From: Amphiscolops sp. MND2022
Lineage: Eukaryota
DNA length: 64,000 bases
NCBI GenBank assembly: GCA_964187785.1
Contig: OZ076409.1
Location: 25,112,001-25,176,000 of the forward strand
Reading direction: 5' to 3'
The stretch's first letter is position 1; every line of letters begins with the position of its first letter. The notes beneath the pieces were generated by a model. The model made no database searches. It saw only the letters and a program-made list of their open reading frames with translations, and was not told where the DNA came from. The position numbers and the translations under genes are program-made. This document shows, piece by piece, positions 4,311-54,647 of this stretch.

Positions 4311-4331
4311 CGGTTTTCTTCTCTTGTTCGT

Positions 4332-4349
4332 ACTTCTATGACTGCGCCA
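4332..4349 (-). promoter_or_regulatory. Primer-binding site (TGGCGCAGTC..., possibly tRNA-Ser)
   Basis: TGG directly follows the ...TATAACA LTR end on the minus strand. tRNA identity is inferred from memory of Ser tRNA 3' ends. Confidence 0.7.
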
Positions 4350-4538
4350 TGTTATAGACTCGATAAAAGGTTTGAAGTAGGATGCTCAAGTTAAGAATGT
4401 GTAAGTAATGTAACATACAAAGTATCACTGTATTCAACGTAAAGTTTGCATCAAAATGAATATAGTCTAGAGGGCAATGTAAGTTCATTGGCAGGTACCT
4501 AATTACTGTTGTCTAGACTATTCTCTCTTCACGGAACA
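4350..4538 (-). repeat. Putative 5' LTR (189 bp) of the Mag-like element
   Basis: TGTT...AACA termini and abuts the PBS. The outer boundary is inferred because the second LTR is not in the window. Confidence 0.6.
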
Positions 4539-5949
4539 TGTGTTCGGGGGTTCGAATCCTAAACTTGACTGCATGTTTTCCAATATAGACTCCAAAATTT
4601 CCGAGGAAAAACACCAAACTTTGATCAAAACCAAGAACTTGAAAAACAACAAAGGAGATAAAGGTGTGAATTGTTTGTTCGTACTCGACCAAAAATTGAT
4701 TAAATTAGAAGAAAATTTACGATTGATTTTGTTGATCATTTTTGATTGTGTTGATCAGTTCGCATGGGAGTGAATAGTTTCTTCCAAAAAAATGTCGTCA
4801 AACGATTGGATAAACATTGGAACCAAAAATGCGATAGCAAAGAGAGATTTTCTTCCAGCAAGAGTATGTCGATCCGAAACATGAAAGCTGAGAGAATTTT
4901 AGACACCAAAGAGATTAAGTCACGTCATTCATAAGCAACGCAGAAAGATTGTGTAATAACCAAATGTTTGGCCTAAATCCAACCGCAAATACTATATACA
5001 GCACTCTGAAGACACACTTCGCCGCACTGGCTCTGGACTTTGCGCCAAAACTTTGCACGCGTCGTGTCTCTGATTGCTTTTCAGCATGTTTCAAAACATT
5101 CTGGGGCCGCTTTGACCCAATGCTGATACCAGTGGGATAAAAGGGTCATAAACGAAAACTGGAAAAACGGAAAATCTGCACTCAATTTTTTAAAATTTTT
5201 TGGTCCCATTTTCTGGATTTCGGAGACATCATGTCAATATTCCGTGAAAAGGAGCCAAATGCTATGCAATATTGTCTGAAAATCCTATTCATGAGTTTTC
5301 TTTACCATACAATCAGCTGGTGCGTTTAGAATTTGCAGAAACTAAATGTGCCGAAATCGGCACATTGGTCAATTTAAGGTTAAAACAGTGTTCCGACGCA
5401 AGATTTTGAAACACTGTATTTACATTTCGCACATATTGGATCGAAATTATAAGAAGCTCTACTCAAAACTGAACATAAATGTTTTGATACGGACAAAAAC
5501 AATGGTGAAAAAACAAAATTCGAAATATAAAAACAAGTACTGGCCATGATGGGATCGGTATTGATTTTTTGAAGTAATCTTAACAAATATTAGAAAAATT
5601 TTAGTCAACGTTTTATTGTCTGTTCGGAAGAACGGAGAGTTCCGGAATGCATAAAAATTCAAAAACTATTCCATTTTTCGAAAAAAGAGATCGCTATTAC
5701 CCTAGAATGTATCGTCCGATTAGCTTTCTAATCTACCTCTGTCAGTAAGTGTTTCAAAAAATGTTCTCTAAACCTTCAGTGAGCTTTTTTTCAAAAAAAG
5801 CAAATTGTTGATTTCGCCCATGCCGTTTAGGATCTAAACGTCTTTAGATCTAAACGGTCATGCACTTTTTCTATTTCTATAGCATCTGAGTATATGAGAA
5901 CGCATATTGATAAACTCAGTGGCCAAGCTTGTAGCATTGATATGAAAAA

Positions 5950-6572
5950 GCTCTTGACTCTTTTGATCAAAATGATTTGCTTCAGAAACTTTATTCTTAT
6001 GGTCTTTTAGGACCAGTACGTTTTATGTGATGTGCATTCCAGAGATAGATTGCAGTACGTCTCTTGAGAGGAAAAAAGGATAACTTGTGTAAAACTTACA
6101 ACAACTGTACCCCAATTGTACTTTCTAGGACTTTTCTTGTTTTCAATCTATGTCAATGATTTACCCGAATATGCGGAAAATAACAAACAAACTGCATCGT
6201 TTGCTGATGAAACAACTCTATTGAAAAGATTGAACGGTAATGCTTCAAAATGAATTTTCGGCACGGAGGTCAACATTGTATACTGCTAATGAACCAAGAA
6301 ATATTGCAAAAAACTTCGTGTTAGTCTTTGGAACTTCATGTGGATAGTAAAATGGCATTCAGAGATTTTATCGTCTACGTAGTTAAGCAACTAAAAAAAT
6401 CAGTGCCCTTGTTGATAGTGTGAGACATCTTTACCCATCAAAATGCCTACTTCTGTTTACTAATTCAAATGCAGCATTGATGATTAGGGATGGATTACTA
6501 GTTTTTGGCAGTGCAGCCAAAAGCAAATCCAAAAATTTTGAAACAGTGAAGAATCCTGCGAGCAAATGTTTC
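5950..6572 (+). pseudogene. Decayed non-LTR (CR1/L2-like) RT fragment, copy 1
   Basis: Translatable motifs VPQLYFLGLFLFSIYVNDLP and FADET match the LINE RT pattern GVPQGSxLGPxLFxxYxNDL / FADD. Confidence 0.75.
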
Positions 6573-6573
6573 T

Positions 6574-6973
6574 AATCTATGTATTCGAATATTTGTTCCC
6601 ACCACATTTTGGGATTGGCTTTTGATAGGTCAGTTTCTCTATCCGATAAGATCGGGATCTTGTACTTGTTTCTTTCAGTCCTTTCGACTATTGTTTGGTT
6701 GACCGCCGTTGGGTCGGTTTCGTTGTTGTTGTTCGTATTTTCCATCGGTTTTCTTCTCTTGTTCGTACTTCTATGACTGCGCCATGTTATAGACTCGATA
6801 AAAGGTTTGAAGTAGGATGCTCAAGTTAAGAATGTGTAAGTAATGTAACATACAAAGTATCACTGTATTCAACGTAAAGTTTGCATCAAAATGAATATAG
6901 TCTAGAGGGCAATGTAAGTTCATTGGCAGGTACCTAATTACTGTTGTCTAGACTATTCTCTCTTCACGGAACA
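6574..6973 (-). mobile_element. Duplicated fragment of the Mag-like element (LTR, PBS, gag 5' end)
   Basis: Copy of 4139-4538 produced by the tandem duplication. Confidence 0.85.
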
Positions 6974-8384
6974 TGTGTTCGGGGGTTCGAATCCTAAACT
7001 TGACTGCATGTTTTCCAATATAGACTCCAAAATTTCCGAGGAAAAACACCAAACTTTGATCAAAACCAAGAACTTGAAAAACAACAAAGGAGATAAAGGT
7101 GTGAATTGTTTGTTCGTACTCGACCAAAAATTGATTAAATTAGAAGAAAATTTACGATTGATTTTGTTGATCATTTTTGATTGTGTTGATCAGTTCGCAT
7201 GGGAGTGAATAGTTTCTTCCAAAAAAATGTCGTCAAACGATTGGATAAACATTGGAACCAAAAATGCGATAGCAAAGAGAGATTTTCTTCCAGCAAGAGT
7301 ATGTCGATCCGAAACATGAAAGCTGAGAGAATTTTAGACACCAAAGAGATTAAGTCACGTCATTCATAAGCAACGCAGAAAGATTGTGTAATAACCAAAT
7401 GTTTGGCCTAAATCCAACCGCAAATACTATATACAGCACTCTGAAGACACACTTCGCCGCACTGGCTCTGGACTTTGCGCCAAAACTTTGCACGCGTCGT
7501 GTCTCTGATTGCTTTTCAGCATGTTTCAAAACATTCTGGGGCCGCTTTGACCCAATGTTGATACCAGTGGGATAAAAGGGTCATAAACGAAAACTGGAAA
7601 AACGGAAAATCTGCACTCAATTTTTTAAAATTTTTTGGTCCCATTTTCTGGATTTCGGAGACATCATGTCAATATTCCGTGAAAAGGAGCCAAATGCTAT
7701 GCAATATTGTCTGAAAATCCTATTCATGAGTTTTCTTTACCATACAATCAGCTGGTGCGTTTAGAATTTGCAGAAACTAAATGTGCCGAAATCGGCACAT
7801 TGGTCAATTTAAGGTTAAAACAGTGTTCCGACGCAAGATTTTGAAACACTGTATTTACATTTCGCACATATTGGATCGAAATTATAAGAAGCTCTACTCA
7901 AAACTGAACATAAATGTTTTGATACGGACAAAAACAATGGTGAAAAAACAAAATTCGAAATATAAAAACAAGTACTGGCCATGATGGGATCGGTATTGAT
8001 TTTTTGAAGTAATCTTAACAAATATTAGAAAAATTTTAGTCAACGTTTTATTGTCTGTTCGGAAGAACGGAGAGTTCCGGAATGCATAAAAATTCAAAAA
8101 CTATTCCATTTTTCGAAAAAAGAGATCGCTATTACCCTAGAATGTATCGTCCGATTAGCTTTCTAATCTACCTCTGTCAGTAAGTGTTTCAAAAAATGTT
8201 CTCTAAACCTTCAGTGAGCTTTTTTTCAAAAAAAGCAAATTGTTGATTTCGCCCATGCCGTTTAGGATCTAAACGTCTTTAGATCTAAACGGTCATGCAC
8301 TTTTTCTATTTCTATAGCATCTGAGTATATGAGAACGCATATTGATAAACTCAGTGGCCAAGCTTGTAGCATTGATATGAAAAA

Positions 8385-9660
8385 GCTCTTGACTCTTTTG
8401 ATCAAAATGATTTGCTTCAGAAACTTTATTCTTATGGTCTTTTAGGACCAGTACGTTTTATGTGATGTGCATTCCAGAGATAGATTGCAGTACGTCTCTT
8501 GAGAGGAAAAAAGGATAACTTGTGTAAAACTTACAACAACTGTACCCCAATTGTACTTTCTAGGACTTTTCTTGTTTTCAATCTATGTCAATGATTTACC
8601 CGAATATGCGGAAAATAACAAACAAACTGCATCGTTTGCTGATGAAACAACTCTATTGAAAAGATTGAACGGTAATGCTTCAAAATGAATTTTCGGCACG
8701 GAGGTCAACATTGTATACTGCTAATGAACCAAGAAATATTGCAAAAAACGTCGTGTTAGTCTTTGGAACTTCATGTGGATAGTAAAATGGCATTCAGAGA
8801 TTTTATCGTCTACGTAGTTAAGCAACTAAAAAAATCAGTGCCCTTGTTGATAGTGTGAGACATCTTTACCCATCAAAATGCCTACTTCTGTTTACTAATT
8901 CAAATGCAGCATTGATGATTAGGGATGGATTACTAGTTTTTGGCAGTGCAGCCAAAAGCAATTCCAAAAATTTTGAAACAGTGAAGAATCCTGCGAGCAA
9001 ATGTTTCCAAAAAAACTTTTTTAGTCTCAAAAAGAACTATCGAGAAACATATAAATTCAGAATTGTTTGTAATGGATGTTTTCACTGATGTTGTACAAAG
9101 TCTCGAATACAAGTTCCCGCTTGCTTTACTAATCAAAATTGATAACCCAGACACAAATGCTACTAGTGGCACAAAAAACTGCCGTCAATTGAATTTTGCA
9201 GAACCAAAATAAAATCAATGTCTATCGAAAATATCCTCTGAAAAGGCTACAACTTAATGAAGGAATTCCATCGAATACCGGGCGACTTGAACGTTTTATC
9301 AAAACAGCAAGTAAAAATTTGGCTCAAAACTATATCTGACATCTTGGTTGGTCAGACGACGCTGGAAACGTTTTTTCATCCGGAAGTATCTGTTTTGCGA
9401 AGTGATTCTTTCTCATCAATACGTGTTCAATATATTAATTTTCTACCTAATTTCTATCAAAACTTTCTACTTCGAAGTTATTACAAACATCCGTTTTATT
9501 TGTGACTTCAATATCTGAAAAAGTTTTCTGTAAACCCGTCTTCACTACTTTCTGGCTTCTATTTAGTTATCAGTTTAGGTTACTTAATTGATTCCACAGG
9601 GCAGAGGCTTGAAGAGCTGCAAAATCTCATTCTCTGTCTTTATTGAATACATTAAACTTG
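8385..9660 (+). pseudogene. Decayed non-LTR (CR1/L2-like) RT 3' fragment, copy 2 with tail
   Basis: Same RT motifs, followed by a degenerate C-terminal coding region and a 3' UTR-like segment. Boundaries are approximate. Confidence 0.7.
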
Positions 9661-16404: not shown

Positions 16405-17121
16405 CTATTGCGTCCTCATATTACTTGGATAAAATGTTACTATGAAAACCCGCAAATTTGTATAGAAATGTTTTAAAAATACTTGAAGAAGTAGTAACGC
16501 AGCATGAAAACTTCTCTGAACAGCTCTCAAACACTTAATAAATTTATCTTGCAACCTAAAAAAGCATGTAATGTAAGAACCATGACCCATGGTATCTCTT
16601 AAGTCACCTACAGATCTTGAATCTTTCTTTGCAATTTTTATTTTAGGCCCGGGTGCGCTTTCCCTGTTCTCCTGACTATTTGGGGACGAACTGGCCTCAG
16701 TGTCCCTGTGTCCCATAGAAGACATCGAGTTCGCAATATTCTGGATTTCTGGAATAACTCTTTCAGCTATAGCTGTTGTTATAGCCCTATTTATTTGGCT
16801 ATGCATTATTGACACCATAGATTCCATTTCTTGAGACAATCTAAGATTAAACTCACTTGAAAAGGCCTCAAAGGATTGCCTGACTTCATTTTGCCTCAAA
16901 GGTTCATTTTCATGTAAGTAATCTCTAAACTCATTTTCATGGTACACGTTTGTATCAGCGTCCCCGTGGGCCGACGACTGATCTATCGCTTCGGCTAGTT
17001 CTCTTTCAATGGGATTATTATTTTCATTTCCCAACATCACGTCTAGGTTATCATAGTCGGACAGCATGTCCATTTCTCTAGATCTCCTAGCTTTGGCCTT
17101 TTGACGTCTAGTAGAAGGCAT
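16405..17121 (-). CDS. 3'-LTR copy of the Gag N-terminus reading out into flanking DNA (238 aa chimeric ORF)
   Basis: The first 183 codons are identical to 30845-30297. The remainder is host flank. Expression is unknown. Confidence 0.4.
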   Translation of the reverse strand: MPSTRRQKAKARRSREMDMLSDYDNLDVMLGNENNNPIERELAEAIDQSSAHGDADTNVYHENEFRDYLHENEPLRQNEVRQSFEAFSSEFNLRLSQEMESMVSIMHSQINRAITTAIAERVIPEIQNIANSMSSMGHRDTEASSSPNSQENRESAPGPKIKIAKKDSRSVGDLRDTMGHGSYITCFFRLQDKFIKCLRAVQRSFHAALLLLQVFLKHFYTNLRVFIVTFYPSNMRTQ

Positions 17122-18100
17122 AAGAGATTATTGCAAGAGGCAAGAATTTAAATTAATATCTCGGGCTTGCAAAGTGAAAATGAACGGGTAGTTTTAATAA
17201 ACAATTCGCAACAGTAACGCAACAGTAACGTATCAAAGTATCATCAGGATAATTCTGTCCCCGGGACCACCAGTCCCGGTTATATATATTTGAATCTACA
17301 TGACACTCAATAAAATGATGATCATATTCTAAAAATAGCCATAAGGACTTTCTAAATATAGCCAAACGCTATAAATAGTAACTAGCATCATCGTGACGTT
17401 ATACACATCAAAGGGCCTTCCGACCGCTAGAGTAGGCGGGAAGCCTGTGAGTCCATAAGGACAAGCAATAATATAAAATAGAACACTGTACATGTTTTTC
17501 AACTCAACGCTTATTGCATGAATTATATGAATTGCACCCACAATACATATCTAATATCGTTCATGAGTCCCTTAGGGGCTAATAGTACATTTCATAAATA
17601 ATCAAAACACTAGTGATCATGTAGTCAGTACCAATAATTATACAGCGCTTTTAATTCAAAAGTGGACTCAGTGTCCAATGTACTAGAGCGGACTACCGCT
17701 TTGTTGACTGGCGGCATATAGCCATCCAGTCCTTTAATCTACTGATATAGTATAGCAGCAAATAAAGATAAATAATACTGCACTGTGATTGGCTGACGAG
17801 TTAATCGGACTCGCGGACCAAGGCGACAGGCGAGGAAACATTTGAACGCGTTTCCTTTACATGTACGCCTTGGTGTCCAATTAACTCACATACATATTAT
17901 TAGCGCCTGTACTATAATTTTACTTGTGATTACTTAGTATAAATCGTATAAAATAAAATATAAGATTTTACATGACTTTTAAGGCAACAAATATAGTTTT
18001 GCTTGTAAGACTTAATTCAGTGGGAGGGTGTTGGGCTGCGCCTTCTTGTAGTTGTGACTAATTGAATAGAGATTTCCATCACAGGCGGACGCCTGGGACA
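16572..18100 (-). repeat. 3' LTR
   Basis: Direct repeat of 30296-31824 with TG...CA ends, preceded by the PPT. Confidence 0.97.
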
Positions 18101-18851
18101 CTCCCCCTGGAATGAGCATAAAACATCCCACCTTCATTCCTTCTAGGAAGGCTAGCCTTCTTGCGTTGAATTGAAGGGCCGATTCTCCTTGGATGGTTGT
18201 TTTATGAAGGTAGTCGATGACTGCCTCGTCTTGAATCTGTTCGACTGATTTTCCGCAGACGAGGCAGTCTGTACATCCTGAGATGTAGGGGTTATCTGCG
18301 CCACTTGGTCCCCTGAAGTGTATTCCGTTGGCATGTTCTTGTTTGCTACTAGTAGTGGCTTCCGCTGCTATTCTCCAGTCGCCTGACGGATATTTGTCGA
18401 CGGCTGGGGGAGACATAGGCGTGTCGACCATAGGGATTAGCTGGCTACACAAATTGATTGGGTGGTCATTCCTTAGTCGCGGGTCTCTCGCAATCGGCCC
18501 TCTGCCCATTCCCAAGTCAAAATAGCCAGCATCGAACATAGGCCCAGGGACGTACGCTAGTCTGGGAGTCGCTGCGCGTGTCACTTCCTGCTTATTGGCA
18601 GAGGAAGGGATGGGAATTGCTTCTGATGTCGATGGAAGCTCCATCTGTCTCTCCACACATTGAGCCAGGAGGGCCATCTCATCGTCCTCAGACAGGCTTT
18701 CTAGGTCGTCAACAGATGCGCTGCTGACACATTCCATGTCGTCGTCCGATGATATGTATATTATTCCGTCTCCGGGCGCTGCCCCCTGAAAGTCCTCGGG
18801 GTAATATTGAGGAGACTCACAGTCGAAGTGACTTGACAAGAATTTATCCAT
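18012..18851 (-). CDS. Accessory sense ORF (about 279 aa from ATG MDKFLSS...), unknown function, overlapping the PPT and 3' LTR
   Basis: Open frame in GC-richer sequence with an acidic N-terminus and a CTDCLVC motif. It ends 89 nt inside the LTR. Confidence 0.75.
   Translation of the reverse strand: MDKFLSSHFDCESPQYYPEDFQGAAPGDGIIYISSDDDMECVSSASVDDLESLSEDDEMALLAQCVERQMELPSTSEAIPIPSSANKQEVTRAATPRLAYVPGPMFDAGYFDLGMGRGPIARDPRLRNDHPINLCSQLIPMVDTPMSPPAVDKYPSGDWRIAAEATTSSKQEHANGIHFRGPSGADNPYISGCTDCLVCGKSVEQIQDEAVIDYLHKTTIQGESALQFNARRLAFLEGMKVGCFMLIPGGVSQASACDGNLYSISHNYKKAQPNTLPLN
18101..18108 (-). promoter_or_regulatory. Polypurine tract (AGGGGGAG)
   Basis: Purine run immediately before the TG of the 3' LTR. 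Confidence 0.85.
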
Positions 18852-20134
18852 GATCAGTTTTTTAGCTATCTTGGACAATTGACTGAAAGGTTTTAAATCT
18901 TGAGTTTTGAGAAGCTGCTGATTTTCAAAAGTGAAACTGAAACAATGGCGGTTTCCCCTTCTGTCGACTTGCGGGAGTTTTCGTTTCAGTTTCCCGGGGT
19001 TTCTCCCTTCCTTGCTGACTAAATTTTCAATAACAAAATTCCTTCTTTCTAGAGTCTATTAACTAGCCGCTCAGTCTTCTTTGAAAATGCCGACCGAGGC
19101 TTTGTTGACTTACATTAACTCTATCAACACTTCCATATTAAGAGCGTCACTTTGAGTGTTTATTAACACTCATCTAGCACTTAAGGGTTTCAAGAGGATG
19201 AAGATATGGCAGACGGCTACGCCGTCTATCAGCAGTTTTGATCAACCAATAGGATTGCAGCATAACCCTCTCTGAATAAAAATGGCTCCCCAAGGCCGTA
19301 GATCCATATAAGGAATAATATAAATGACCTTGAAAATGAATAAAATCATGGTAAAATCATGAAATAATTTGTAAAATAACAAAGTTTCGAAATAAATGAA
19401 TGAATGTAGATATTGCTGGCAGACTCCATCCACATAATAATACGAATTGTAAATAACTAAATTTGACACCAAATTGTACAGCCACGAACTCCAATTTTGA
19501 CATCTTGTCACATTGCCAATTCACCTTTTAATTCTTTACTTTCAAATTCCTTCGAATTACTCTTCTTGTATTATCGTCCAGTATTTAACCATCTTTAGTC
19601 TTTAGTCTTTGAGTAGTATTTTCTTTGTATTTGTTTGAAGTTTCCATTTGTAATCTCTCTCCTTTACGTCTTTTGTGGATTTCTTGGGTCGTCCCAGGAC
19701 CATCGACACTGAGTCCCTTTCGGCAATTCCTGCCATATTCACTATTCTCGCCTTCTTCCGAAGAAGAATTTGCTCCCCCCAAGCGGCAACTATTGCACAG
19801 ACATTAAACAGATTCACTGACGCTTCCGCTGACAATTCCATCTGTCTCCAAATTCTAAGACAGCCAGTCAACTTGCCATCAGCAGTTTTGCACACAGGAC
19901 ACACTTCTACCAGAATCAGTCAGGTGAGTAGCAATTTAGGATTTTCGCTTCTAATCTTGATAATGAATTAATCTGAGGCTTGATCAGGGCTCTCGTTTCA
20001 TTCACGTACTTCCTGTCCCATAACTCAAGCATTCACTCGAGTTCAAAATATCTACTCCCGGAAGATTTTTAAACGCGGTAATGGACTCTTTTTCAGGAAG
20101 TTATCCGCCTGAGTTTATCTCTTTCCATTTAGAC

Positions 20135-23100
20135 ATGTCGTCAGAAGAGCAAAGTGAAGCTGTCCCTGCTACTACCACAGAACCGCAAATCGAAGAAGAG
20201 GTCTCGCAAAGCCATGAAAAGGCAACAGCTAGTCAGGCCATCTCAGGTCACGGGGACGTTGAGTCCGCACACATTGAGCTGCCAGGCGATAATCCAGCTA
20301 CGACCGTCCCAACGCCCAGTCCATCCACTGACGAAAGTATCTCTGCATATATCGAACGCCAGCTGCAAACTCTCGGTTGCCAGGGCAGTGGACTCGGCAT
20401 TTCCTTCCTGCCTCCTACTACATCTGCCATCGTAAACAAGTCGCTCCCAACTGCTGCTGAGAAGGTCTCTGAGTCGGACCCTATTCTACAGGTCACGGGT
20501 GAGACCAGCAATAAAGGGTCTGCTGAAGAATATGCCGATCCGATGACTGACGTCCACAGCGAGGCGGGTATTTCCGCTACCAAGGTGGATTATTTTCAAA
20601 CTGATACCAGCGACGCCGAAGAATTGCAGGACAGTTCAGGAGCAGAAACTCTTAAAGAATCCCCTTTCCTAATCGCCATGGAAAATTTGAGCGCCACCGG
20701 GTCAGAAGTTCCTAAAGAGGCTGGACTGACCTCCTCTGCAGGGTTGCCAGATGTCACGTCCCCAAAACTCCTTAGTCCCACACGGCCTTTGTCTGCATCT
20801 GCGCGTACTCTCATCAATCAGCATTTCACGGAGACTAATCCGAGTATCCTTCCAGTGGGCCATGCGACAGTAGCCTTCAACCAGGGGCAGGTGCACTCTA
20901 TTTTGCGTGCTGTGTCCACTGAGACTCTCACTTCTTGTTTTCATCAAATGAAGAACATCTTAGAGGAGGCAATTCGTGTGGGTCGTTCCCAAAGTACCCA
21001 TCAGGGTCCCGCCAAACAACGCATCAAGTGCTTCCGAAAGAAGTCCGATAGCCCTGAGTTAGAAGGTCAGGATAGTGACATTGGTACCGAGGGGTACACC
21101 AGTGGAGCCCTCAGTTCAGAAGATGAGTTTGTCATCAACTCCCAGAGAACCGGCAAGGAATTGAGTATCGTGCCTCCCCCAAGTCCTCCTGGCCAAGATT
21201 CTCCCTGCACTACTGATCCCACTATTAGCCACCAAGTCCCCAGTCCAGGATTCTGTTCCACGGACTATGAGCCGTTGGCTACCCTGACTGCTGATCAAGC
21301 TTCCGCCTCCAGTCCACCACGCAAGCGTCGTCGGGTTCCAGGACGAAGCGGCAAAATAATGAAGGAGGCATATTTCAAAGGAATTCAATGGACTCGGACC
21401 TTTGTCACTGGGCCGCTCGATCCTGAGCACAATAAACATAAGTTTTATTGTCAGATTTGTAAGGCCAATGTGTCAATTTTCTCAAAAGGCGCCCGAGAGA
21501 TTACCCGACATTTCCAGTGTGAGTCCCACTTTCGTAAGGATCAGCGCTGGAGATATGAGAATTTGAAGAAAAAGGACAGTGTCACTGGGCGAATCGTCCA
21601 TGAGGTCAGGGGAAAGAAAGGTCAAATCCTTACTCCCTTAGAACTAGAGAGGGAGAAACCCTTCTTCATGCAGGCCCCTTTAGTTGAGATGGGATGCAGT
21701 TATCCGTTCTACGAGGACCATATGGCTGGTTTGGGTTCCATTGCTGGGCAAGAGGAAATCAGACTGTGTGTACAGATCTCATTGGTCGCCCTCTTTGCTC
21801 CTCGCTGCGGAGATCTGCACGTCCTCGAGTCACTGTGGTCACAAATTTGAACTGTGACCAACCACCAGAGTCTGTTCTCCCCTTATAATTGGGGCTCCAC
21901 AACATTGACAGTAAGTATCAACTATTTTCAACCTCGAGGTCTTTCCAGACTATTATGGACGGGGTATATTTTCATCCATGCTAATTTGTTTCGGACGATC
22001 TTCCATCACATCTTCCTCTGTGGCATCTCTGACATCGCGTATCAGGTCAATGCCACAGGCCAGTACTCCTTGGAATTCGAGACGCAAGGTACTTATAGCT
22101 TCGTGTCGATCCGTTTCTGGAAAGGCGAGTCCCTCAATGTTGTCCGGCTGCTGCGCTATCGAACTGCCTCAGAGCCTGCTGCGAGCTTCTTGCTAGCCCT
22201 CTCTCGACTCTTGTCTGCAATATCTGCACAGCCACAAATTGTGAGTGTGTCTGGGTGTCCAGCAGAGCTGATCCCGCTTCTTGAGCGTTCCTGTTTCTTC
22301 CAGAAGGGGATTGAATATCCCTTCAGATTTGATGCTCTGTCCTTGCCGAGCATGATGCATGAACGTTGGGGCAGCGTGTTTGGATCCATCAGTTTCTTCT
22401 CCCAGTTGAAGTTTCTGATCACCTTCTTGGATGGCTGCAGTGGACAACCTTGGGCTGCCTTAATGCCGGAATTTGTCAGGGTATGGTCAATGTCTCACCG
22501 CCTGTAGGTCCAGTTGTAGGTTGATTCTAATTTTCATGTTGTTTGTAGGCTATGACAACTTGCCATTTGGATATTGCTGCAGTGCCAACAGGCAGAATTA
22601 GGCATCCACAAGTAGAAATTTGTCATAGAGGGTTCACAGGTGTTATATGTACCCTCCAGGACAATTGAGCATTCTGTATTTCAGAAGAGCTTCGAGAGTC
22701 AATTCGCACAACGAAGGGACAGTGGCTTCTATACCTTCCGCGAGTTCCACACCTTCATCAGAAAGTTGGCAGCACGGGCACTACTTCCTAGACATGTGCC
22801 AGAGATTTTAGACTGGAAAGCCCTAGACGACATGCAAGGACAGAACTGGCGACAACTGTCCAACCGAGATTTCCTGACTCGCTTAAAGCTGAAAGAGAAT
22901 CTTGATGGGGCTTGTCTCGCTCGTGTCAAGAAGATTCATAGTGAAAAACAGCTGACACCTGAGGAGACAAAAATTGCAGTTGAAGCCATCCGGGACGATT
23001 TCGCTACCAAAGCTCGCAATTATCTCGTCTACCTTCTGAAAGTCTTCTTGTCGGATATCAGTCTGAATGCAGGTATTGTCAGAGGTTTGGGTTGTTTCGA

Positions 23101-23830
23101 CCCAATGGCCCTCTTGTGTCTTCCTCTTGATCAAGCCACCTATTGCTTTTCAGCATTGTATCGATCCTTCAGTCTGCGAGGATGGTTGGAAAATTCCCCA
23201 GCGGCTGATGTCCGCGATGAGTACATTGACTTTTTAGAGTACTTCCGCCAGTTGAATTCCGGGGCCAAAGATACCCCTGAGGTCTTTACTGACATGGTAG
23301 CCACCCTGATAGAAATGCCTGGGCTGAAGATGCGTAAACATTTGTTCCACATCTTCCAATTGAGTTGTTTGTGCCTTACAACTAAGTTGCCAGAGCTCCC
23401 AGCTGTCAAATTCCCCGGAGTTGATTGTAGTGAACCCCGAAGTCGGCTGTTCGAAGTCATCATGCCCGCACAGTCATACCTCGCTAATGTTGCTAGTGCA
23501 GTGTCAGTGTGTACTACAGAAGCTTCTTTGGGTACTTTCAAAGATCTGGAGTTTCGGTTTTGTAGCGGGAATGTCTCAGGGGACCCCTGGTCTCATGTAG
23601 ATAGTTTCAACAGGGCCAACATTCACAAAACTTTGATTGCTGTCTACAAGGCTTTGGGCAGCAGTGTCCCACCTGACGCTGAGTGCGCTTCAAATTCTTC
23701 ATCCAAAGAAGGGAGGAAGCAACGCAAACAGTCTCCCAATAAGGGCAAGAAAGTTTGTTTCAAGGTCGCTAGCGGATCTGAGGCCACTGAGTCTGGTGAT
23801 GTAAACGCTCCCGGTACCTCTAAATCCTAA
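20135..23830 (+). CDS. Antisense multi-exon accessory gene (about 1156 aa; exons about 20135-21910, 21995-22480, 22549-22611, 22685-23830), C2H2/BED-like zinc finger; this copy has an in-frame TGA
   Basis: Three long ORFs joined by short phase-0 introns (GTAAGT, GTATGG and GTAGAA donors; CTAAT branch motifs in the first two). Candidate 5' UTR intron 19924-20132, AATAAA at about 24009. TGA at 21848-21850, and the first acceptor reads CGG. Confidence 0.75.
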
Positions 23831-24067
23831 ATGTACAAAGAGTACATTTGTTTCTAGACTCTGTAATTGTTGTAAACTGCTTTGTATTTATTTCTTTTTT
23901 CTTTGCTTTATTTGCGTGGCCCTGTATTATTGGCCACTGAGTCTGTTTTGTTGTATATATATGTTTCAAGTAAAAAGTAAAAGATTAGTCAGAGTAGTCC
24001 CAAGTAAAAATAAATGTCCCCATGGACTAGTAGAGAAATAAAGGGACTGGTAATTCAAGTTTTCTGG

Positions 24068-27000
24068 CTAGTATCTGTATTCATCAGTAAAGTTGGGGGT
24101 TGGGTTAGGTCGAAGATTGTATTTCCCTCCTCTAGGGCTCGAATTTTCATTTGAATTTCCTCGTTCCGATATTCCGGGCACGGTAATATCTGCGCCTGTG
24201 TTTGAAACGTTTTCCGTATCTTTTAAATCATTAGTGACGTCATTTTCATTCTCAGTCCCCTTTGGCGTTTCATTCGGCGGGGACGGTTCGTCACTGCTAT
24301 TGTTCTCTCTCGGGGATATTTCGTTCTCGGTAACGTCATATTCTGTCGTGCGCTCGTTGTAACTTTCATTGCTTGCGCGTTCGTTCTCGGTGATGTAATT
24401 GTCCGCATTACTGCACTCGGCGTCCGTCGGCCGGCGTGTGGCCACGTCGGTCCAATTTTCCTTTCTCGGTTCAAATAAGTCGTACTCAAAATCTACTTCC
24501 CATGAGATAGTGTACAAGTCGTCTTGCGGTATTACTATCTCATTATCAGGTTGTAGTTTTTCGCCATCATATTTGTCCTCTAAGGGGGCGTTCGGTACGA
24601 ATTTCTTTAGTCTAATGCGATGAAGTATTTGGGTTTTATTTGTATTTAGACGACGGACAATATAATTGTCGTTGGACAGTACTTTTTGAATGACGAATGG
24701 TCCAATCCACCTGTATTCCTTGAATGGAATTTTTAACCCCTGACTGTCCGCTTTAGGTTGTAGAACAAAACAATAATCCTTTTCTTTAAGCGGGGCAGCT
24801 TTTGCCTTTCGGTCGTAATAGTCCTTATATTTCAAATAAGACTGCATTATGTTCTTTTTTGTTTGATCTATGAGGATTTGTGTCCTCTGCTGTACTTCCT
24901 CCGCAAATTCTGTAGTTGGCAGAAAATTTTTATTGGGGTTATTTCCCAATTTGTGGTCTAGGACGTTATAGGGAATCCGGCCGTGGAAGACTTTACTCGG
25001 TTCACATCCAATACTAGAGTGGTATGTGGTATTGTAGTTGAGTACTGCTAATGGTAAATATTTATGCCATTGGCGTCGATATTCCCCTGAGGCCATTTTC
25101 AAATTTGTTTTGAGTGAGGCATGGGTCCTTTCGAGTTTGCCAATTGTTTGCGGGTGCTTTGTAGTAGCACATTTGAGTGTTATACCTAAAATTTGAGTTA
25201 TCTCAGCTATGATGGTCGATGTAAATGCGGACCCTTTGTCTGTGATGAGAGTTGTTGGTAAATATGAATGTTTCGTCATGATATCAATTATCACCTTGGC
25301 TACATTCGTGGCTGTTGCCTCAATTAGCGGGTAGGCGAATAAGTATCTTGAGAATACATCTATAGCCGTCATCACCGTCTGGTATCCGCCACTAGTCGGT
25401 AAGTTTGGTAATAAGTCTATCTGCATGGCATCTTCTGGACCAAGGTCCCATTCGGGCAAGTTTAACAATTCTGGTGTAATTGTATTATTTGGGACTCTTT
25501 TGTCTCTAGCGCACGTTTCGCAGCCTTCTACCCATTTTTTAACGTATTTTGCTATGCCAGGGTAGTAGTATTTTTGGCGGATCTCTTGCAGCATTTTAGA
25601 GATGCCTGGATGTCGATGTGCCGTGCCATGTATTGCTTGCAGTAGTTCTTTCAACAGGTGCTTTGGCAGTAAGATTTGGTGGTATTTGATTTGTCCCGTT
25701 TCGTCGTAATACTGTCGGGTCACTATTTCGTCCTTGAGGACTATACGGTCTAAGTTATTTAAATAATGTTTATACCGAATGTCCTGCTGAAGGATTTCTT
25801 CAGAGTATTCTTCATTTTGAATTTTTGCTTTTAAATGAAGCAAAATCGGATCTTTGGGTTGTTCTAGTAGTATTTGGTTGGTTCTGCGTAGTTTCTGAGT
25901 GAAATTGGTAATTTCATCTACTACATTTTCAGATATGGTATCGATTTGGATGACGGTCTCATCGACCTTGAGTCCTGCTTTTGATTGTTTTTTCCTTTCC
26001 CAAATTTGTTCTTCTGTTTCATTGTCTTCTTCTGTAAAGAACACTTGTTCTTCTTCAGACACGCCGGCTGATTGGACATTAACATCAATAGGTTGGGTTT
26101 CAACGTCCGCTCGGATTTTTAGGACTAACTTTTCAGTGGGGTCCATTTCCATGCGGGACAGGTAGTCCGCCGCTGTGTTGTTTTTGCCTGGAATGTGCGC
26201 TATAGTGAAATTGAACTGAATAACAAAGTCACACGCGTTCCATAATGGCGGCGGTATTATTTTAGTCTGGAAAAACCTTGTGACTGATTTGTTGTCTGTG
26301 AGGATAATCACCGGCTTAGGCGTGCCCCAGAATATATGTCCAAATTCTTTGAAGGCGTAATAGATGGCTAAAAATTCCTTCGCATAAATTGACATTTTAA
26401 GCTGTGAAGGAGTAAAAGTTTTTGAACCATATGCAATAGGCGCATAGGATTTCTTGACTGAGGTAAATTTCTGATTTGGATCATCTTCAGTAAGTATAGC
26501 ATATCCGGCTGCTGTGAAGCTAGCATCTGTCATCAGGACTAGCTGTCGATTTGGCAAGGGCTGCCTCAGGGCTAGCTGGGTGCATCTGTCCAAATCTCTA
26601 TTGATCTCGTTGAATTGTTCAATTAATTCCGTTGTGACTAAGACCTTTTCGTCCTTCTTTAATAGTTGAAAGAAAGGGACTAATTTTTCTGATAACCTCG
26701 GTATGTAGTTTCTATAATAATTAAGGAATCCGAGGTAACGTTGTAAGGCTTTTTTGGATTTTGGGAATTTCGTTTTTTCTAGGAATTGTATGACTCGTTC
26801 CTTCTGGGGCTTGACACCCTCAGGGGTGATTGTCCTCCCTAAGAAATCAATCTCAGTTGCTCCGAAGTGGCATTTATGCATCGTTAATTTCAATCCAGCC
26901 TCTCGGATGCATTCGAAAGTTGCTCTGAGATTTTTAATGAGATGCTCAGCGTCGTTGGCCGCGATGCCAATATCATCCACGTATTGGGCACATTGATCGA

Positions 27001-29155
27001 CTTTGATGACACGGTCCAAATATTCTCTCATAAAACTGGAGAATGCCGATAAGGCTCTACTGAGACCTTGGGCCAATCTTCGATATGCAAACGTTCGGCT
27101 GGCAAATTTGAAGGCCAACATCTCTATAGACCGTTGGTCCGCCATTTGAAGGCAATGGTACGCTTGCGAACAGTCAAGCTTACAGAAAAGTTTCCTTCCG
27201 GCCATATGTTGTGCAGCGTCCGTTAAGGTGCTGACTGGATGGTTGTTGTTGATATAGTCGTCAGAAATGAGATTGTTGATCTTCCGGAGGTCTACCAGTA
27301 GTCGCAGTTTCCCATTAGGCTTCTTTTGTGCAAAGATAGGGCTAGCGTACTTTGAGAATGGTAATGTTGTTATAATACCATATTTGTGTAGTGACGCTAA
27401 TTCGACCAATATGTCCTCTTTTAAATTGACCGGAGTTGGTAAGCTCTGGCTGTAGGCAGGAGAGTCGTCCTTCGGGGTCAATTTGACCGTGAACTCCTCA
27501 TTCATACCAATGTCAAACCTATGACGGGCAAATATGTCGTGAAATTCGACTAATAGCGCTTCTATCTGTTTGATTTCATGCTGTTGTAGCATTGAGTCCT
27601 TCCAGTCAAAGTTACTGAGGAATTTTTGTCGAGATTCTTCATTGTCTTGTGGATTTAGTTTTTCTGCTTCTTGCAGGTTTCGTAATTCTCTAAGAATTCT
27701 CTTTTGTATTGGAGTATGGGACTCTTCGTCCCCTGGGTTTTCGGGTGTTGGAAACCAGTATTGTTCGTGTTGGTCATTGTTCCTGTTGGCTTTGAGAAGG
27801 CTGCTGATATAATAAATAGCATCTTCTTCATTTTCATTTAGTAGGTGCCAAGTGGACACTGGGTCTATTGGCCTAAAATGTTTCATTTGCTCTGGAGTCA
27901 TCACTGAGAAATTCGCTATGTGCATCCCTTTTTTGAGTTTAAAGGGCTGGTCTGTGAAGTTGTTGACATGGATCCTCGTAGTCCCTTCGTCCAGTGTGAC
28001 TATGGCGGCACAAAATGTCATATCATTTTCTTCGTTTAGAAGGTCACTGGGTTGTAAGATTCCAGTGACAGCGTTTTCTGCATAAATTTGAGATTGGATA
28101 GGGATGATTGTACGTCCATTTGGCGGAATCGTTATATCCTCGGGGTTGAGGATAGGTTCCATTACATTGGAGTACTTATGGTCAGCTGTTTTCAATTGCA
28201 TCGAGAAGAAGGAAAAGTTAAGTATGCCTTGGCGCATATCTAGGACTGTGTGGTTTCTTTGTAAGAACATAAGTCCAATTATGGGGCTGGATAATTTTTC
28301 CATCACTATGAAGATTTCGTGGAACTCTATGTCCCCTACTTCGAACTTCAGTTCTACTGTACTCTTCGGAGTTTCCAGGTCTCCATTTGCGACCATAATT
28401 TGGAATGACGGGGCAGGACCCTCTTTCACTATTGATTGGGGTGCAAGTAGCCGTATTTTCCTAAGGTCAGCTTCTGGTATCGCGCTGGAGTGGGCCCCAG
28501 TGTCTATGAGACCATCTAATGTTAGTTCTCCAAAGTCCATTGGGAAATATAGCATCCGCCTTTTGATTTTGAGGCCAAGGTTGGTAGAGAGGGGAACGTA
28601 TGACGGTTCTCCTTGTTTTTCCACTAGGATGTGCAAGAAGGCTGTTTCGTCTAAAAGGCTGTCGGGGCCTTGAAAGTCTTCTTGCTCTTGAGTTTCCTCT
28701 ATTTCTTCTAAGACTGCTTCGGAATTTGGCTGCCAAAGTTCAATGAGGGCCCTGGATAGTTTGTTGTCCACTATCGGGGGATCGTCCTCGTCGTCCGTTG
28801 GTGGATATTCGTCTTGTCTAAACTGGAGTTTTTGTCTGTCGTAGAGTTCGTCGTCCCAATAAGGGTCTTTGCCGTAATCAGGATCGGGGTATTGAGGGTG
28901 ATAATCTTCGATCAAGGGTAAGGGACGGAATTGAGTCTCGAAGTCTTTAGTATAGTCGATTTCGTAAAATCGGTCTGGGCGATCATTATGTACTATTTTA
29001 TATGTTCGGATATATGCTTGTTCCATCTGTTGCTGCCAGACAACAGTGGGAATTCCTTTTGTATCCTTGATTGTTTGGCTGTATTTGATTATTGGAGGAT
29101 CTGAAATGACATATTGTCGAACCGACATATAGTCATGTATTTGGAGTCGTGGCAA
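24068..29155 (-). CDS. pol: Pol polyprotein: protease, dUTPase-like domain, reverse transcriptase, RNase H, integrase
   Basis: Uninterrupted 1695-codon frame with LIDTGA, QYVDD (26972-26983), MTDAS/KEFLAI/LTDN, integrase H..H..CETC, QIDL/ITDKG/LERT, and a WIGPF module. Confidence 0.98.
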   Translation of the reverse strand: MPRLQIHDYMSVRQYVISDPPIIKYSQTIKDTKGIPTVVWQQQMEQAYIRTYKIVHNDRPDRFYEIDYTKDFETQFRPLPLIEDYHPQYPDPDYGKDPYWDDELYDRQKLQFRQDEYPPTDDEDDPPIVDNKLSRALIELWQPNSEAVLEEIEETQEQEDFQGPDSLLDETAFLHILVEKQGEPSYVPLSTNLGLKIKRRMLYFPMDFGELTLDGLIDTGAHSSAIPEADLRKIRLLAPQSIVKEGPAPSFQIMVANGDLETPKSTVELKFEVGDIEFHEIFIVMEKLSSPIIGLMFLQRNHTVLDMRQGILNFSFFSMQLKTADHKYSNVMEPILNPEDITIPPNGRTIIPIQSQIYAENAVTGILQPSDLLNEENDMTFCAAIVTLDEGTTRIHVNNFTDQPFKLKKGMHIANFSVMTPEQMKHFRPIDPVSTWHLLNENEEDAIYYISSLLKANRNNDQHEQYWFPTPENPGDEESHTPIQKRILRELRNLQEAEKLNPQDNEESRQKFLSNFDWKDSMLQQHEIKQIEALLVEFHDIFARHRFDIGMNEEFTVKLTPKDDSPAYSQSLPTPVNLKEDILVELASLHKYGIITTLPFSKYASPIFAQKKPNGKLRLLVDLRKINNLISDDYINNNHPVSTLTDAAQHMAGRKLFCKLDCSQAYHCLQMADQRSIEMLAFKFASRTFAYRRLAQGLSRALSAFSSFMREYLDRVIKVDQCAQYVDDIGIAANDAEHLIKNLRATFECIREAGLKLTMHKCHFGATEIDFLGRTITPEGVKPQKERVIQFLEKTKFPKSKKALQRYLGFLNYYRNYIPRLSEKLVPFFQLLKKDEKVLVTTELIEQFNEINRDLDRCTQLALRQPLPNRQLVLMTDASFTAAGYAILTEDDPNQKFTSVKKSYAPIAYGSKTFTPSQLKMSIYAKEFLAIYYAFKEFGHIFWGTPKPVIILTDNKSVTRFFQTKIIPPPLWNACDFVIQFNFTIAHIPGKNNTAADYLSRMEMDPTEKLVLKIRADVETQPIDVNVQSAGVSEEEQVFFTEEDNETEEQIWERKKQSKAGLKVDETVIQIDTISENVVDEITNFTQKLRRTNQILLEQPKDPILLHLKAKIQNEEYSEEILQQDIRYKHYLNNLDRIVLKDEIVTRQYYDETGQIKYHQILLPKHLLKELLQAIHGTAHRHPGISKMLQEIRQKYYYPGIAKYVKKWVEGCETCARDKRVPNNTITPELLNLPEWDLGPEDAMQIDLLPNLPTSGGYQTVMTAIDVFSRYLFAYPLIEATATNVAKVIIDIMTKHSYLPTTLITDKGSAFTSTIIAEITQILGITLKCATTKHPQTIGKLERTHASLKTNLKMASGEYRRQWHKYLPLAVLNYNTTYHSSIGCEPSKVFHGRIPYNVLDHKLGNNPNKNFLPTTEFAEEVQQRTQILIDQTKKNIMQSYLKYKDYYDRKAKAAPLKEKDYCFVLQPKADSQGLKIPFKEYRWIGPFVIQKVLSNDNYIVRRLNTNKTQILHRIRLKKFVPNAPLEDKYDGEKLQPDNEIVIPQDDLYTISWEVDFEYDLFEPRKENWTDVATRRPTDAECSNADNYITENERASNESYNERTTEYDVTENEISPRENNSSDEPSPPNETPKGTENENDVTNDLKDTENVSNTGADITVPGISERGNSNENSSPRGGKYNLRPNPTPNFTDEYRY

Positions 29156-29157
29156 AA

Positions 29158-30845
29158 TTAGTTTTTTGAATCAGATTTTTTAGTATTGGGTTGGCTTGAA
29201 GTAGCCGTTTCTGGGTCATTTGCTTTTTTAGGCTTTCCTTCGGAGTCTATAGCATTTCGGTCATTTTGTTCTGTCTGCATCCTTTTGGGTCGCAGGTGGG
29301 CGCCGGCGCCTTGCCAGCACCTTTCGGTTGGGTGGTTCTTTTTGCCACATGTGTCACACGGTGGGTAAGTTGGACGCTGAGGTTTTTTACCGTCTTTGTC
29401 CTCCGTTTCCTTTTTCTTCTTGAGTTTCGGGCAGTTTTTGTAATAGTGACCCGTCGCCTTGCAGTATGAGCATTGGGCGTCTTTATTTGTGTTGATGCCA
29501 TTGGACAGTAAATTGTTATGGCTCGTGGACGCCGAGGCCATAGTGGCCATTGGCAGATCATCTGACTCTTCTAATGCATTGAGTTCCAGTTCTCTTTCAA
29601 GATGAGCAACTATTTCTTCATACGTCCCGTTCTCCAAACGGGCCATGTTGACAGATCGTTTCAGTTTTGGGGGTAATTTCGCGTATAACAAGCTGTCAAT
29701 CATGCTTTTAGCGTTTTCCCCAAATGCTTTTTCTGCACCTTGGTTCAGTTCTTCCAAGAAGTCTGGTAGTTTCATTGTACTTGGATCGAAGTTCAATCGG
29801 TGCCATTTATGCTTTGCCGTTGCTTGTGATTCCGGTTTGACATATTTCCTCCGGAATATGACCAGTACGTCCTCGAGAGTTTGACGGTTGATTGAGTTTA
29901 TGTTCCTGAATGTCTGTAATGCTCCCTTTCGTAGCAAAGAATGAAAGTGATTAATTTTCATTTGTTCTGTCATTGTGGGCTGCATTTTGATCATCGTATG
30001 GAACAAGTCCTCAAAGAGCTCAAATTTTTCACTTTTCCCATCAAATGTCATCGGGGTTGTTTGTACGGGTCTGATGGTCATAGATTGCGGTTTGTTTTGC
30101 AAATTGACCAATACGTCGGCTAGTCTATTAAACGGGTTCTGAGGAGGTTCAGGAGCCTCTGGGGCCGGGGCTGGCAGAGTCGTGTCCAGAGAGATATTGT
30201 GTGTGGATTGTTGTCTCTCTAGGTTCGGGATTGAGTGGATTCGTCCGGTCAGAAATTCGGAATTTGCGGTTGGGTGTCGGTAGCTCCTGTCACCATGTAA
30301 GAACCATGACCCATGGTATCTCTTAAGTCACCTACAGATCTTGAATCTTTCTTTGCAATTTTTATTTTAGGCCCGGGTGCGCTTTCCCTGTTCTCCTGAC
30401 TATTTGGGGACGAACTGGCCTCAGTGTCCCTGTGTCCCATAGAAGACATCGAGTTCGCAATATTCTGGATTTCTGGAATAACTCTTTCAGCTATAGCTGT
30501 TGTTATAGCCCTATTTATTTGGCTATGCATTATTGACACCATAGATTCCATTTCTTGAGACAATCTAAGATTAAACTCACTTGAAAAGGCCTCAAAGGAT
30601 TGCCTGACTTCATTTTGCCTCAAAGGTTCATTTTCATGTAAGTAATCTCTAAACTCATTTTCATGGTACACGTTTGTATCAGCGTCCCCGTGGGCCGACG
30701 ACTGATCTATCGCTTCGGCTAGTTCTCTTTCAATGGGATTATTATTTTCATTTCCCAACATCACGTCTAGGTTATCATAGTCGGACAGCATGTCCATTTC
30801 TCTAGATCTCCTAGCTTTGGCCTTTTGACGTCTAGTAGAAGGCAT
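29158..30845 (-). CDS. gag: Gag (about 560 aa), interrupted by one frameshift near 30258
   Basis: Capsid-like region (TFDGKSEKFELFE) and two CCHC knuckles (CSYCKATGHYYKNC, CDTCGKKNHPTERC). The ORFs 30249-30845 and 29158-30111 join if one base is restored (QIP-EFLTGRIH...). Confidence 0.85.
29161..29167 (-). promoter_or_regulatory. -1 programmed ribosomal frameshift slippery site A_AAA_AAC
   Basis: Heptamer in the gag frame directly before the TAA. The -1 frame is pol, and a downstream hairpin is present. Confidence 0.8.
30278..30295 (-). promoter_or_regulatory. Primer-binding site (TGGTGACAGGAG..., tRNA-Leu-like)
   Basis: TGG immediately after the LTR's terminal CA. tRNA identity is inferred. 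Confidence 0.8.
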
Positions 30846-31824
30846 AAGAGATTATTGCAAGAGGCAAGAATTTAAATTAATATCTCGGGCTTGCAAAGTG
30901 AAAATGAACGGGTAGTTTTAATAAACAATTCGCAACAGTAACGCAACAGTAACGTATCAAAGTATCATCAGTATAATTCTGTCCCCGGGACCACCAGTCC
31001 CGGTTATATATATTTGAATCTACATGACACTCAATAAAATGATGATCATATTCTAAAAATAGCCATAAGGACTTTCTAAATATAGCCAAACGCTATAAAT
31101 AGTAACTAGCATCATCGTGACGTTATACACATCAAAGGGCCTTCCGACCGCTAGAGTAGGCGGGAAGCCTGTGAGTCCATAAGGACAAGCAATAATATAA
31201 AATAGAACACTGTACATGTTTTTCAACTCAACGCTTATCGCATGAATTATATGAATTGCACCCACAATACATATCTAATATCGTTCATGAGTCCCTTAGG
31301 GGCTAATAGTACATTTCATAAATAATCAAAACACTAGTGATCATGTAGTCAGTACCAATAATTATACAGCGCTTTTAATTCAAAAGTGGACTCAGTGTCC
31401 AATGTACTAGAGCGGACTACCGCTTTGTTGACTGGCGGCATATAGCCATCCAGTCCTTTAATCTACTGATATAGTATAGCAGCAAATAAAGATAAATAAT
31501 ACTGCACTGTGATTGGCTGACGAGTTAATCGGACTCGCGGACCAAGGCGACAGGCGAGGAAACATTTGAACGCGTTTCCTTTACCTGTACGCCTTGGTGT
31601 CCAATTAACTCACATACATATTATTAGCGCCTGTACTATAATTTTACTTGTGATTACTTAGTATAAATCGTATAAAATAAAATATAAGATTTTACATGAC
31701 TTTTAAGGCAACAAATATAGTTTTGCTTGTAAGACTTAATTCAGTGGGAGGGTGTTGGGCTGCGCCTTCTTGTAGTTGTGACTAATTGAATAGAGATTTC
31801 CATCACAGGCGGACGCCTGGGACA
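30296..31824 (-). repeat. 5' LTR
   Basis: Direct repeat of 16572-18100. Confidence 0.97.
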
Positions 31825-32114
31825 TGTAAATCTTTAAGGCACTTGCAAATTGGGTTTAACTCAATAACTTCTTGTCTTTTTCTTGTCTCTAAGAAAAGAC
31901 ACAATATCGTATACCACGATTTTATTTCGAACAAATACAACAAATAACTTGAACCAGCTATGGACAAATCAATTTATTCACCATTCACCAATTCATTCCC
32001 TCTCATTGACTATAGCCCAACCCGTCACCAAAGGTTCTACAAATACAAAAAATCGGCAAGTTCAACCAGCTTTAAAGATTTTGACCGAACCAAGAAAGGA
32101 ATCAGAAGTATATT

Positions 32115-53820: not shown

Positions 53821-54647
53821 GAAGGACGCACAGATATAAAAAAACGAGTAAGCTCTGGAAAACGGGTAGAATGGATTCAATGTCTGGGCACTTCCGTGAC
53901 CTCCGACTAAACTGCCCTCACTCTCTTGGAAAGAGCCGTGGTACACAACCGTTTGGCTGTCTGAGTATATCCGAGATAGCTTCTTGTATTTTTTTTAGAT
54001 CGTTGCCTTCTCCGCTTAGATACATGTCGAATTTTATGTTCAAGCCACTTTTCGTTCCACGATGACTAATATAGTAGCATGTGATTTACAACTGGAGTAC
54101 AATTTATCACTGATTTTTACAAGCTTTCGATTCTGACCTTACGTCGTTGTGGCACTGACCATAATCAGGTGGTTTTTCGTGTATGTGTAATTCGTTGCTA
54201 CTGCGCCGGATTTTTTCCAGAAAACACTTCGTGGCCAATTGGTTACACTGGATCATCAAACGCACAATATGAGTATTCAGTGTGTGGATTGACCCAAACA
54301 CAATTGAACTTAAATCAATAACTTTTTTCATTTAACTATGGATAGTGTTATTTTTGTTTTTCTTTCTCAGCCCGTTTCCGAAGTGTATTCGAAAGCTGAT
54401 TTCTCAAAGTGATTTGTATTCACATTCGCTGCCATTGTAGATCTAGTTGTATAACTTTACTTTTTGATTTTTACTAAAAGACAGATTGGTAGCTACATTG
54501 CATTCACGGGAGATTTGTCACTATTTTCAGTCTCCATTTTAGCAGGCAGCAGTAAATAGTTTACAGGTTATGTTTTTTCGACTGTAGTTATTTAGTCTTT
54601 CCTTCTCACCAGACAATGAAGCTGAGGCTAGGAGTACTGATATTTTT

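Follow-up and report, generated by a model that had tools for sequence, protein, structure and literature searches.

An antisense, intron-containing accessory gene of probable hAT transposase ancestry travels as an exchangeable cassette in Ty3/gypsy elements of Amphiscolops sp.

The window described here is a stretch of 64,000 nucleotides from Amphiscolops sp. MND2022 (assembly GCA_964187785.1, contig OZ076409.1, positions 25,112,001 to 25,176,000, forward strand). It contains a Ty3/gypsy element that is complete and lies on the minus strand, and this element encloses, on the plus strand, an intron-containing gene referred to below as the cargo gene. The cargo gene lies between pol and the 3' long terminal repeat (LTR), as does a sense open reading frame (ORF) of 347 amino acids (aa), and is arranged tail-to-tail with pol. 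An initial annotation had taken it for a catalytically dead derivative of a hAT transposase. The parts of the gene are the following.

19924..20132, plus strand: predicted 5' intron, with conserved donor and acceptor, predicted from sequence
20135..21316, plus strand: acidic Ser/Pro/Thr-rich N-terminal region, with its start at 20135 when the 5' intron is removed and at 20081 when it is retained
21317..21334, plus strand: basic cluster PRKRRR, resembling a nuclear localization signal (NLS)
21449..21529, plus strand: BED-like zinc finger C-x2-C-x16-H-x5-H, aligned to the N-terminus of Hermes
21848..21850, plus strand: premature stop, private to the window copy
21911..21994, plus strand: intron, phase 0, with a non-canonical acceptor in the window copy
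21995..22480, plus strand: exon for the predicted RNase H-like core (strand 1 at 22064, strand 4 at 22238)
22481..22548, plus strand: intron, phase 0
22549..22684, plus strand: remnant of a 72-codon exon and the following intron
22685..23830, plus strand: last exon, with an all-helical region and a basic Ser-rich tail

The motifs quoted in the initial annotation were all recovered in one plus-strand frame, namely FYCQICK (21443-21463) and HFQCESH (21509-21529) of the zinc finger, YSLEFETQGTYSFVSIRFW (22064-22120) and IVSVSGCP (22238-22261) in the RNase H-like core exon, and LGCFDP (23087-23104) and HLFHIFQLSCLCL (23339-23377) in the last exon. The acidic Ser/Pro-rich N-terminus was likewise borne out, with 33% Ser+Pro+Thr and 14% Asp+Glu over 412 residues; the interval, given from 21317, had to be extended, as the gene begins about 1.2 kb further upstream. 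In the genome, 2,260 sites match the zinc-finger pattern exactly and none match the reversed control, so the pattern is not a product of chance. Reading through the TGA, as had been proposed, is not enough to obtain the protein, since the window copy carries four lesions: the stop and the non-canonical acceptor at 21993, each present in 0/29 siblings, a roughly 237-bp deletion following 22589, which took most of one exon, and a deletion of 5 bp following 22684. The deletions were found in none of the 16 closest siblings. Because of this damage, the analysis of the cargo family rests on siblings. The idea that the window copy had moved while already broken was dropped; it carries 18 private substitutions (sibling range 1-62), and its deletion junction occurs only once in the genome.

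With the last exon as query, all 120 scored candidates matched (the best 120 of 7,308). Forty of 100 listed places with the zinc-finger pattern were then fetched, selected for diversity; this sample is drawn through the cargo, so that cargo-less copies are uncountable in it. Pol lies on the opposite strand just downstream of the cargo in 36 of the 40 loci and on the same strand in none, i.e. the antisense placement between pol and 3' LTR that is termed aORF-3R in plants is found in 36/40. Full-length reading covered 24 elements, consisting of 20 of the sampled loci, three siblings and the window element. Their LTR pairs are 97.4-100% identical in 24/24 cases, pointing to a young clade with many families. 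A free-standing cargo gene was seen neither among the 40 loci nor at one odd locus that was examined. L143, considered as an intron-less copy, was rejected as it is decayed, partly duplicated and situated inside an LTR element. In a decayed element at G000:C8:59322500-59352499, about 2.7 kb, including most of the cargo gene, is duplicated in tandem. When 1.84 billion representatives were searched with a profile, there were 682 matches; all 150 listed ones align to the cargo family, 25 of them at less than 50% identity. For two, P0130 and P0139, the scored matches in the Amphiscolops sp. genome do not exceed 39% identity, which suggests that the family is present in other genomes too. No genomic context was found for the divergent relatives P0130, P0146 and P0150 in metagenome or viral contigs.

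The exon structure was compared over 47 loci. Ends of the three coding introns are canonical in 39/39, 39/39, 36/38 and 41/43 scorable cases, and intron lengths vary freely. Many subfamilies have an additional intron within the 72-codon exon; it is absent in several distinct lineages (L106, L138, L141 and the window clade) and present in L103-L105 and others. The 5' intron measures 195-215 nt, with donor and acceptor present in 24/24 elements. A tiny upstream exon gives an in-frame ATG in 12/24, and in the window subfamily an ATG follows the 5'-intron acceptor, at 20135. By our count, the gene would comprise five exons in the window subfamily and six in others. The first coding intron is absent at the same column in three library proteins (P0024, P0130 and P0146), and precise intron loss or gain may have occurred repeatedly in this retroelement-borne gene. 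Within the predicted 5' intron, positions 20073-20111 hold a conserved block (GCGG, ATGGA, GGAAG, CCG) at a fixed distance from the acceptor in 24/24 elements, conservation of its anchor columns being due in part to the search procedure. The block could act as a cis-element or provide an alternative in-frame start; neither a consensus RNA structure on either strand nor an Rfam match was found.

For the analysis of selection, 28 complete copies were used and 19 of the 47 loci, which lack a complete exon set, were left out. Twenty-two of the 28 are stop-free over about 744 residues (small frameshifts between exon pieces left unscored). Identity has a median of 39% and a minimum of 34%. The ratio of nonsynonymous to synonymous substitution (dN/dS) has a median of 0.044 for the cargo (21 usable pairs) compared to 0.039 for pol, with 0.13-0.14 in the acidic N-terminal region (two pairs). 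The cargo gene is under purifying selection.

The carrier is a regular LTR retrotransposon with TG..CA LTR ends, a target-site duplication within the 4-6 bp range, and gag, protease, reverse transcriptase (RT), RNase H and integrase in this order. Its two LTRs (1,529 bp each) are 99.8% identical.

16572-31824, minus strand: complete Ty3/gypsy element, enclosing the cargo gene
16572..18100, minus strand: 3' LTR, 1,529 bp, with target-site duplication TGTAA at 16567-16571
~18101-18109: polypurine tract, adjoining the 3' LTR
18012..19055, minus strand: second extra ORF, 347 aa, sense, with its end within the 3' LTR
24009..24042, plus strand: two AATAAA hexamers between the cargo and pol stops, possible polyadenylation signals to judge from sequence
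24068..29170, minus strand: pol, open frame of 1,700 aa (protease, dUTPase, RT, RNase H, integrase)
29158..30851, minus strand: gag, two overlapping frames (30249-30851, and 29158-30327 with a zinc knuckle)
30296..31824, minus strand: 5' LTR, followed by a primer-binding-like TGG tract, with target-site duplication at 31825-31829

The first ~190 codons of gag sit within the long LTR, and the gag start is therefore present in both LTRs. The second gag frame overlaps the first just beyond the primer-binding tract, an overlap that suggests a frameshift or splice. In pol, the dUTPase-like domain is placed between protease and RT. The second extra ORF has no Pfam match; it shows a C-x2-C-x2-C motif close to its end and is found in many relatives.

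Trees of pol and cargo were compared for 21 copies, the remaining seven of the 28 being without pol coverage. Three deep groups are common to both trees, as are 7/18 splits; within the groups, pol differs by 1-4% and the cargo by 12-43%. Ten element pairs, hand-picked from the tree and full-element results, were then compared along their length. In 5/10, identity is mostly 85-99% across LTR, second ORF, pol and gag and ~45-70% across the cargo block, whose edges lie ~400 nt 5' of the start and 200-300 nt beyond the stop. In the exchanged pairs, the second extra ORF stays linked to the LTR and not to the cargo cassette. The cargo gene and its upstream region thus move as a block that is not tied to LTR or pol; template switching between co-packaged RNAs would be the simplest route. 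Among the 28 copies, four positions of the zinc finger are highly variable amid invariant neighbours, and may confer different DNA specificities.

The ancestry of the cargo protein was addressed via structure and sequence. The zinc-finger pattern is invariant in 28/28 copies, and the structural alignment to Hermes runs from residue 22. The predicted strand order downstream is that of an RNase H-like core, at moderate model confidence, and the helical region of the last exon would by inference represent the insertion domain and C-terminal part. Both the Foldseek and the VIA structure lists place Hermes first, with RNase H-like and actin-like folds lower, and Hermes (PDB 8edg, 4d1q) matches both halves of the protein in order. 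The Atlas leads for the cargo protein are hAT-type as well; an Atlas assignment of the last exon to RabGAP-TBC (at most 0.83) was rejected, being below lead level and unsupported by other searches. Sequence comparison gave a different picture. Pfam revealed no hAT kin, whether applied to pieces of the window or to sets of 29, 26 and 28 aligned copies. None appeared in a PDB sequence search or a word-index search among longer proteins, and cargo profiles against 32 hAT loci of the same genome were negative, as was hhalign, local and glocal. At the Pfam cut-off, zf-BED did not match the zinc finger, and the C-terminal dimerisation domain PF05699 was found in 0/29 copies and not in the window copy. 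A scan for PF14291 across the own genome was uninformative, as it gave no match even for the control. Around the cargo gene no repeats of at least 40 nt were found, shorter inverted repeats not being sought. The annotated hAT relationship is partly supported, and we consider hAT ancestry probable.

The source may instead have been another DDE superfamily with zinc finger and insertion domain (Mutator, P, Kolobok, Transib) or a hAT-derived gene that a host had domesticated beforehand (ZBED/ZMYM type), the latter of which would also account for the introns. Such a source would agree with the failure of all sequence tests against hAT, where two hAT groups find each other at 99.4%, and with the intron-free long hAT frames (597-697 aa) of the same genome. 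Moreover, solved structures exist for few such transposases, and the structure lists show no other transposase superfamilies except Mos1 and retroviral integrases, so that unlisted ones are not thereby excluded. Still, Hermes ranks above every other transposase in both structure searches, with both halves in order, and the Atlas leads agree; a host-gene origin would be hAT by descent all the same, and no free-standing copy was seen. An origin outside hAT or through a host gene is accordingly rated as unlikely.

Catalytic positions were placed from secondary structure and motif spacing, not by superposition, with the Hermes numbering for the triad. H268 and W319 of Hermes are given as in PMC4763223. 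The inferred first position is Glu in 24/28 copies; the second, at the end of strand 4, is Gly in 27/28; and the third shows no conserved acid. The CxxH after strand 5 is not conserved, with C/D-x2-H in 4/28 copies at differing places. Tip-type hATs, for comparison, retain all of the triad and CxxH in 64-67 of 67. The D, D, E triad is hence not retained, and the view that catalytic residues are not recognisable is accurate except for the Glu at the first position. The cargo protein fails as a working hAT transposase, and on these modelled positions it is very probably catalytically dead.

Building on the position, exon structure, selection and exchange established above, we tentatively propose that the cargo is a spliced antisense accessory gene encoding a hAT-derived, dead, nuclear DNA-binding activator or anti-silencing factor, fixed in a large gypsy clade and exchanged as a cassette. 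A hAT would have inserted backwards between pol and 3' LTR of an ancestral element, with introns acquired before or after this capture. In the LTR cycle, introns opposite to the genomic RNA escape splicing before reverse transcription; it is because of this orientation that the exon structure would survive after capture at the DNA level. An internal promoter would produce the antisense mRNA, which the host would splice. The product would enter the nucleus (at least four K/R per six residues at the NLS-like site in 23/30 copies) and bind DNA via its zinc finger, with an oligomeric scaffold provided by the dead transposase body. Its acidic Ser/Pro-rich region would recruit host transcription or chromatin factors, and the element would thereby stay transcribed. 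A role as nuclear DNA-binding regulator is the better half of this proposal and somewhat favoured; that its effect is activating or anti-silencing is held with less than even confidence. As cassette type is independent of LTR type, the bound site should lie within the cassette or be common to the clade. A more far-reaching version, in which each cassette unites its own zinc-finger contacts, promoter and target and is shuffled as part of a specificity library in an arms race that pits elements against the host or against one another, appears doubtful.

An integration cofactor is the strongest functional alternative, although we regard it as improbable. Such a protein would bind cDNA (complementary DNA) ends or chromosomal targets and tether or shield the integrase complex, the cassette types representing target preferences. 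BED fingers provide DNA specificity to hATs (PMC4763223), the nuclear signal is kept, the zinc-finger positions are variable, and cassette exchange would alter targets while LTRs stay unchanged. Conversely, the discordance between pol and cargo (1-4% versus up to 43% difference, 7/18 common splits) leaves no evident tight co-evolving contact, 21 target-site duplications revealed no insertion-site consensus, and the long acidic low-complexity region would better fit transcription control. Less likely still is a self-repressor or immunity factor against copy number, competing elements or autonomous hATs, with cassettes as incompatibility groups under frequency-dependent selection. Deeply diverged cassette types do coexist on near-identical backbones, each under purifying selection, and hATs are plentiful in the genome (150/150 scored candidates above cut-off). 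However, action in trans should permit many cargo-less copies, while 36/40 loci of the cargo-drawn sample keep the last exon, and the deletion junction of the window copy is solitary. A rebuilt nuclease or metal site (Glu-x-Glu, strand 1) cutting DNA or RNA is very unlikely: the two strand-1 acids are conserved (28/28 and 25/28), but the Gly ending strand 4 and the unconserved CxxH and third acid speak against it, the more so as hairpin formation in Kat1 and Hermes requires CxxH (PMC4763223).

The cargo protein resembles Hermes and other hATs in the predicted order of its parts: a zinc finger, a helical domain, the RNase H-like core, then a putative helical insertion and a C-terminal part. It differs by lacking a conserved catalytic set and a Pfam hAT match, by its 400-residue acidic N-terminal extension, and by its place between two LTRs, with duplications of 5 bp. 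Host-domesticated hAT proteins (ZBED, GTF2IRD2, FAM200 and ZMYM1 types) reuse the transposase body as DNA-binding regulator, often without catalysis; unlike these single-copy genes, the cargo has been kept by a transposon, in thousands of mobile copies and exchangeable variants. Bdelloid gypsy-like LTR elements reportedly contain extra ORFs. The planarian Burro gypsy-like elements contain ORFs acquired by capture, and their dUTPase is placed between protease and RT; the accessible text of PMC6431247 names no antisense, spliced or transposase-derived cargo. In plants, antisense aORF-3R genes occur in Ty3/gypsy elements such as maize Grande (gene23), rice RIRE2 and Retand, the last with TRP28/Transposase_28 (PF04195); gene23 of Grande is driven by an internal promoter of its own and gives a nuclear product, and the passages available describe aORF-3R origin and function as unknown, without similarity to other elements (PMC11963269, PMC7264820). 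The cargo gene agrees with these, as far as they are described there, in position, orientation, presence in most copies of a lineage and a proposed nuclear or DNA-binding role, but differs in its DDE-transposase architecture, four or five conserved introns and cassette exchange; PF04195 matched neither the window proteins nor the aligned cargo copies. A model for the proposed role is VANC of the Arabidopsis VANDAL elements, an element-encoded anti-silencing protein that needs high-copy short motifs (PMC6719617). Like VANC, the cargo is an accessory protein encoded by an element and diverging fast between families. VANDAL is, however, a DNA transposon, VANC is not transposase-derived as described there, and high-copy short motifs are not evident for the cargo: an 8-mer scan of 24 elements, with gapped or degenerate motifs outside its scope, gave a clear repeat only in L108 and L134. 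The 8-mer TGACGGCA is present 6x and 10x in these related elements. No hAT-derived, spliced, exchangeable accessory gene of an LTR element was found in the literature covered, subscription papers and repeat databases being mostly outside its scope.

Elsewhere in the window, the region 1080-9010 holds a second, distant gypsy element, which has a gag-pol frame at 1080-4385 with an internal RT deletion and is adjoined by a tandem duplication of 2,437 bp (4136-6572 and 6571-9007, 99.8% identity); no cargo match was found in this region. At 51400-57400, a degenerate repeat array of ~185 bp units lies within a diverged duplication of ~3.5 kb.

Domestication of transposases is known from hosts; in the present case, a mobile element of one class seems to have domesticated the enzyme of another. 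The element appears as dependent on the cargo as on pol, given a dN/dS of ~0.04 for both. The cargo also shows how an intron-rich gene can travel on an element with an RNA intermediate. One cargo family combines a traceable architecture with putative specificity variants, carried naturally by backbones that are nearly identical, and with naturally occurring loss-of-function copies, so that the function of antisense accessory genes becomes directly testable.
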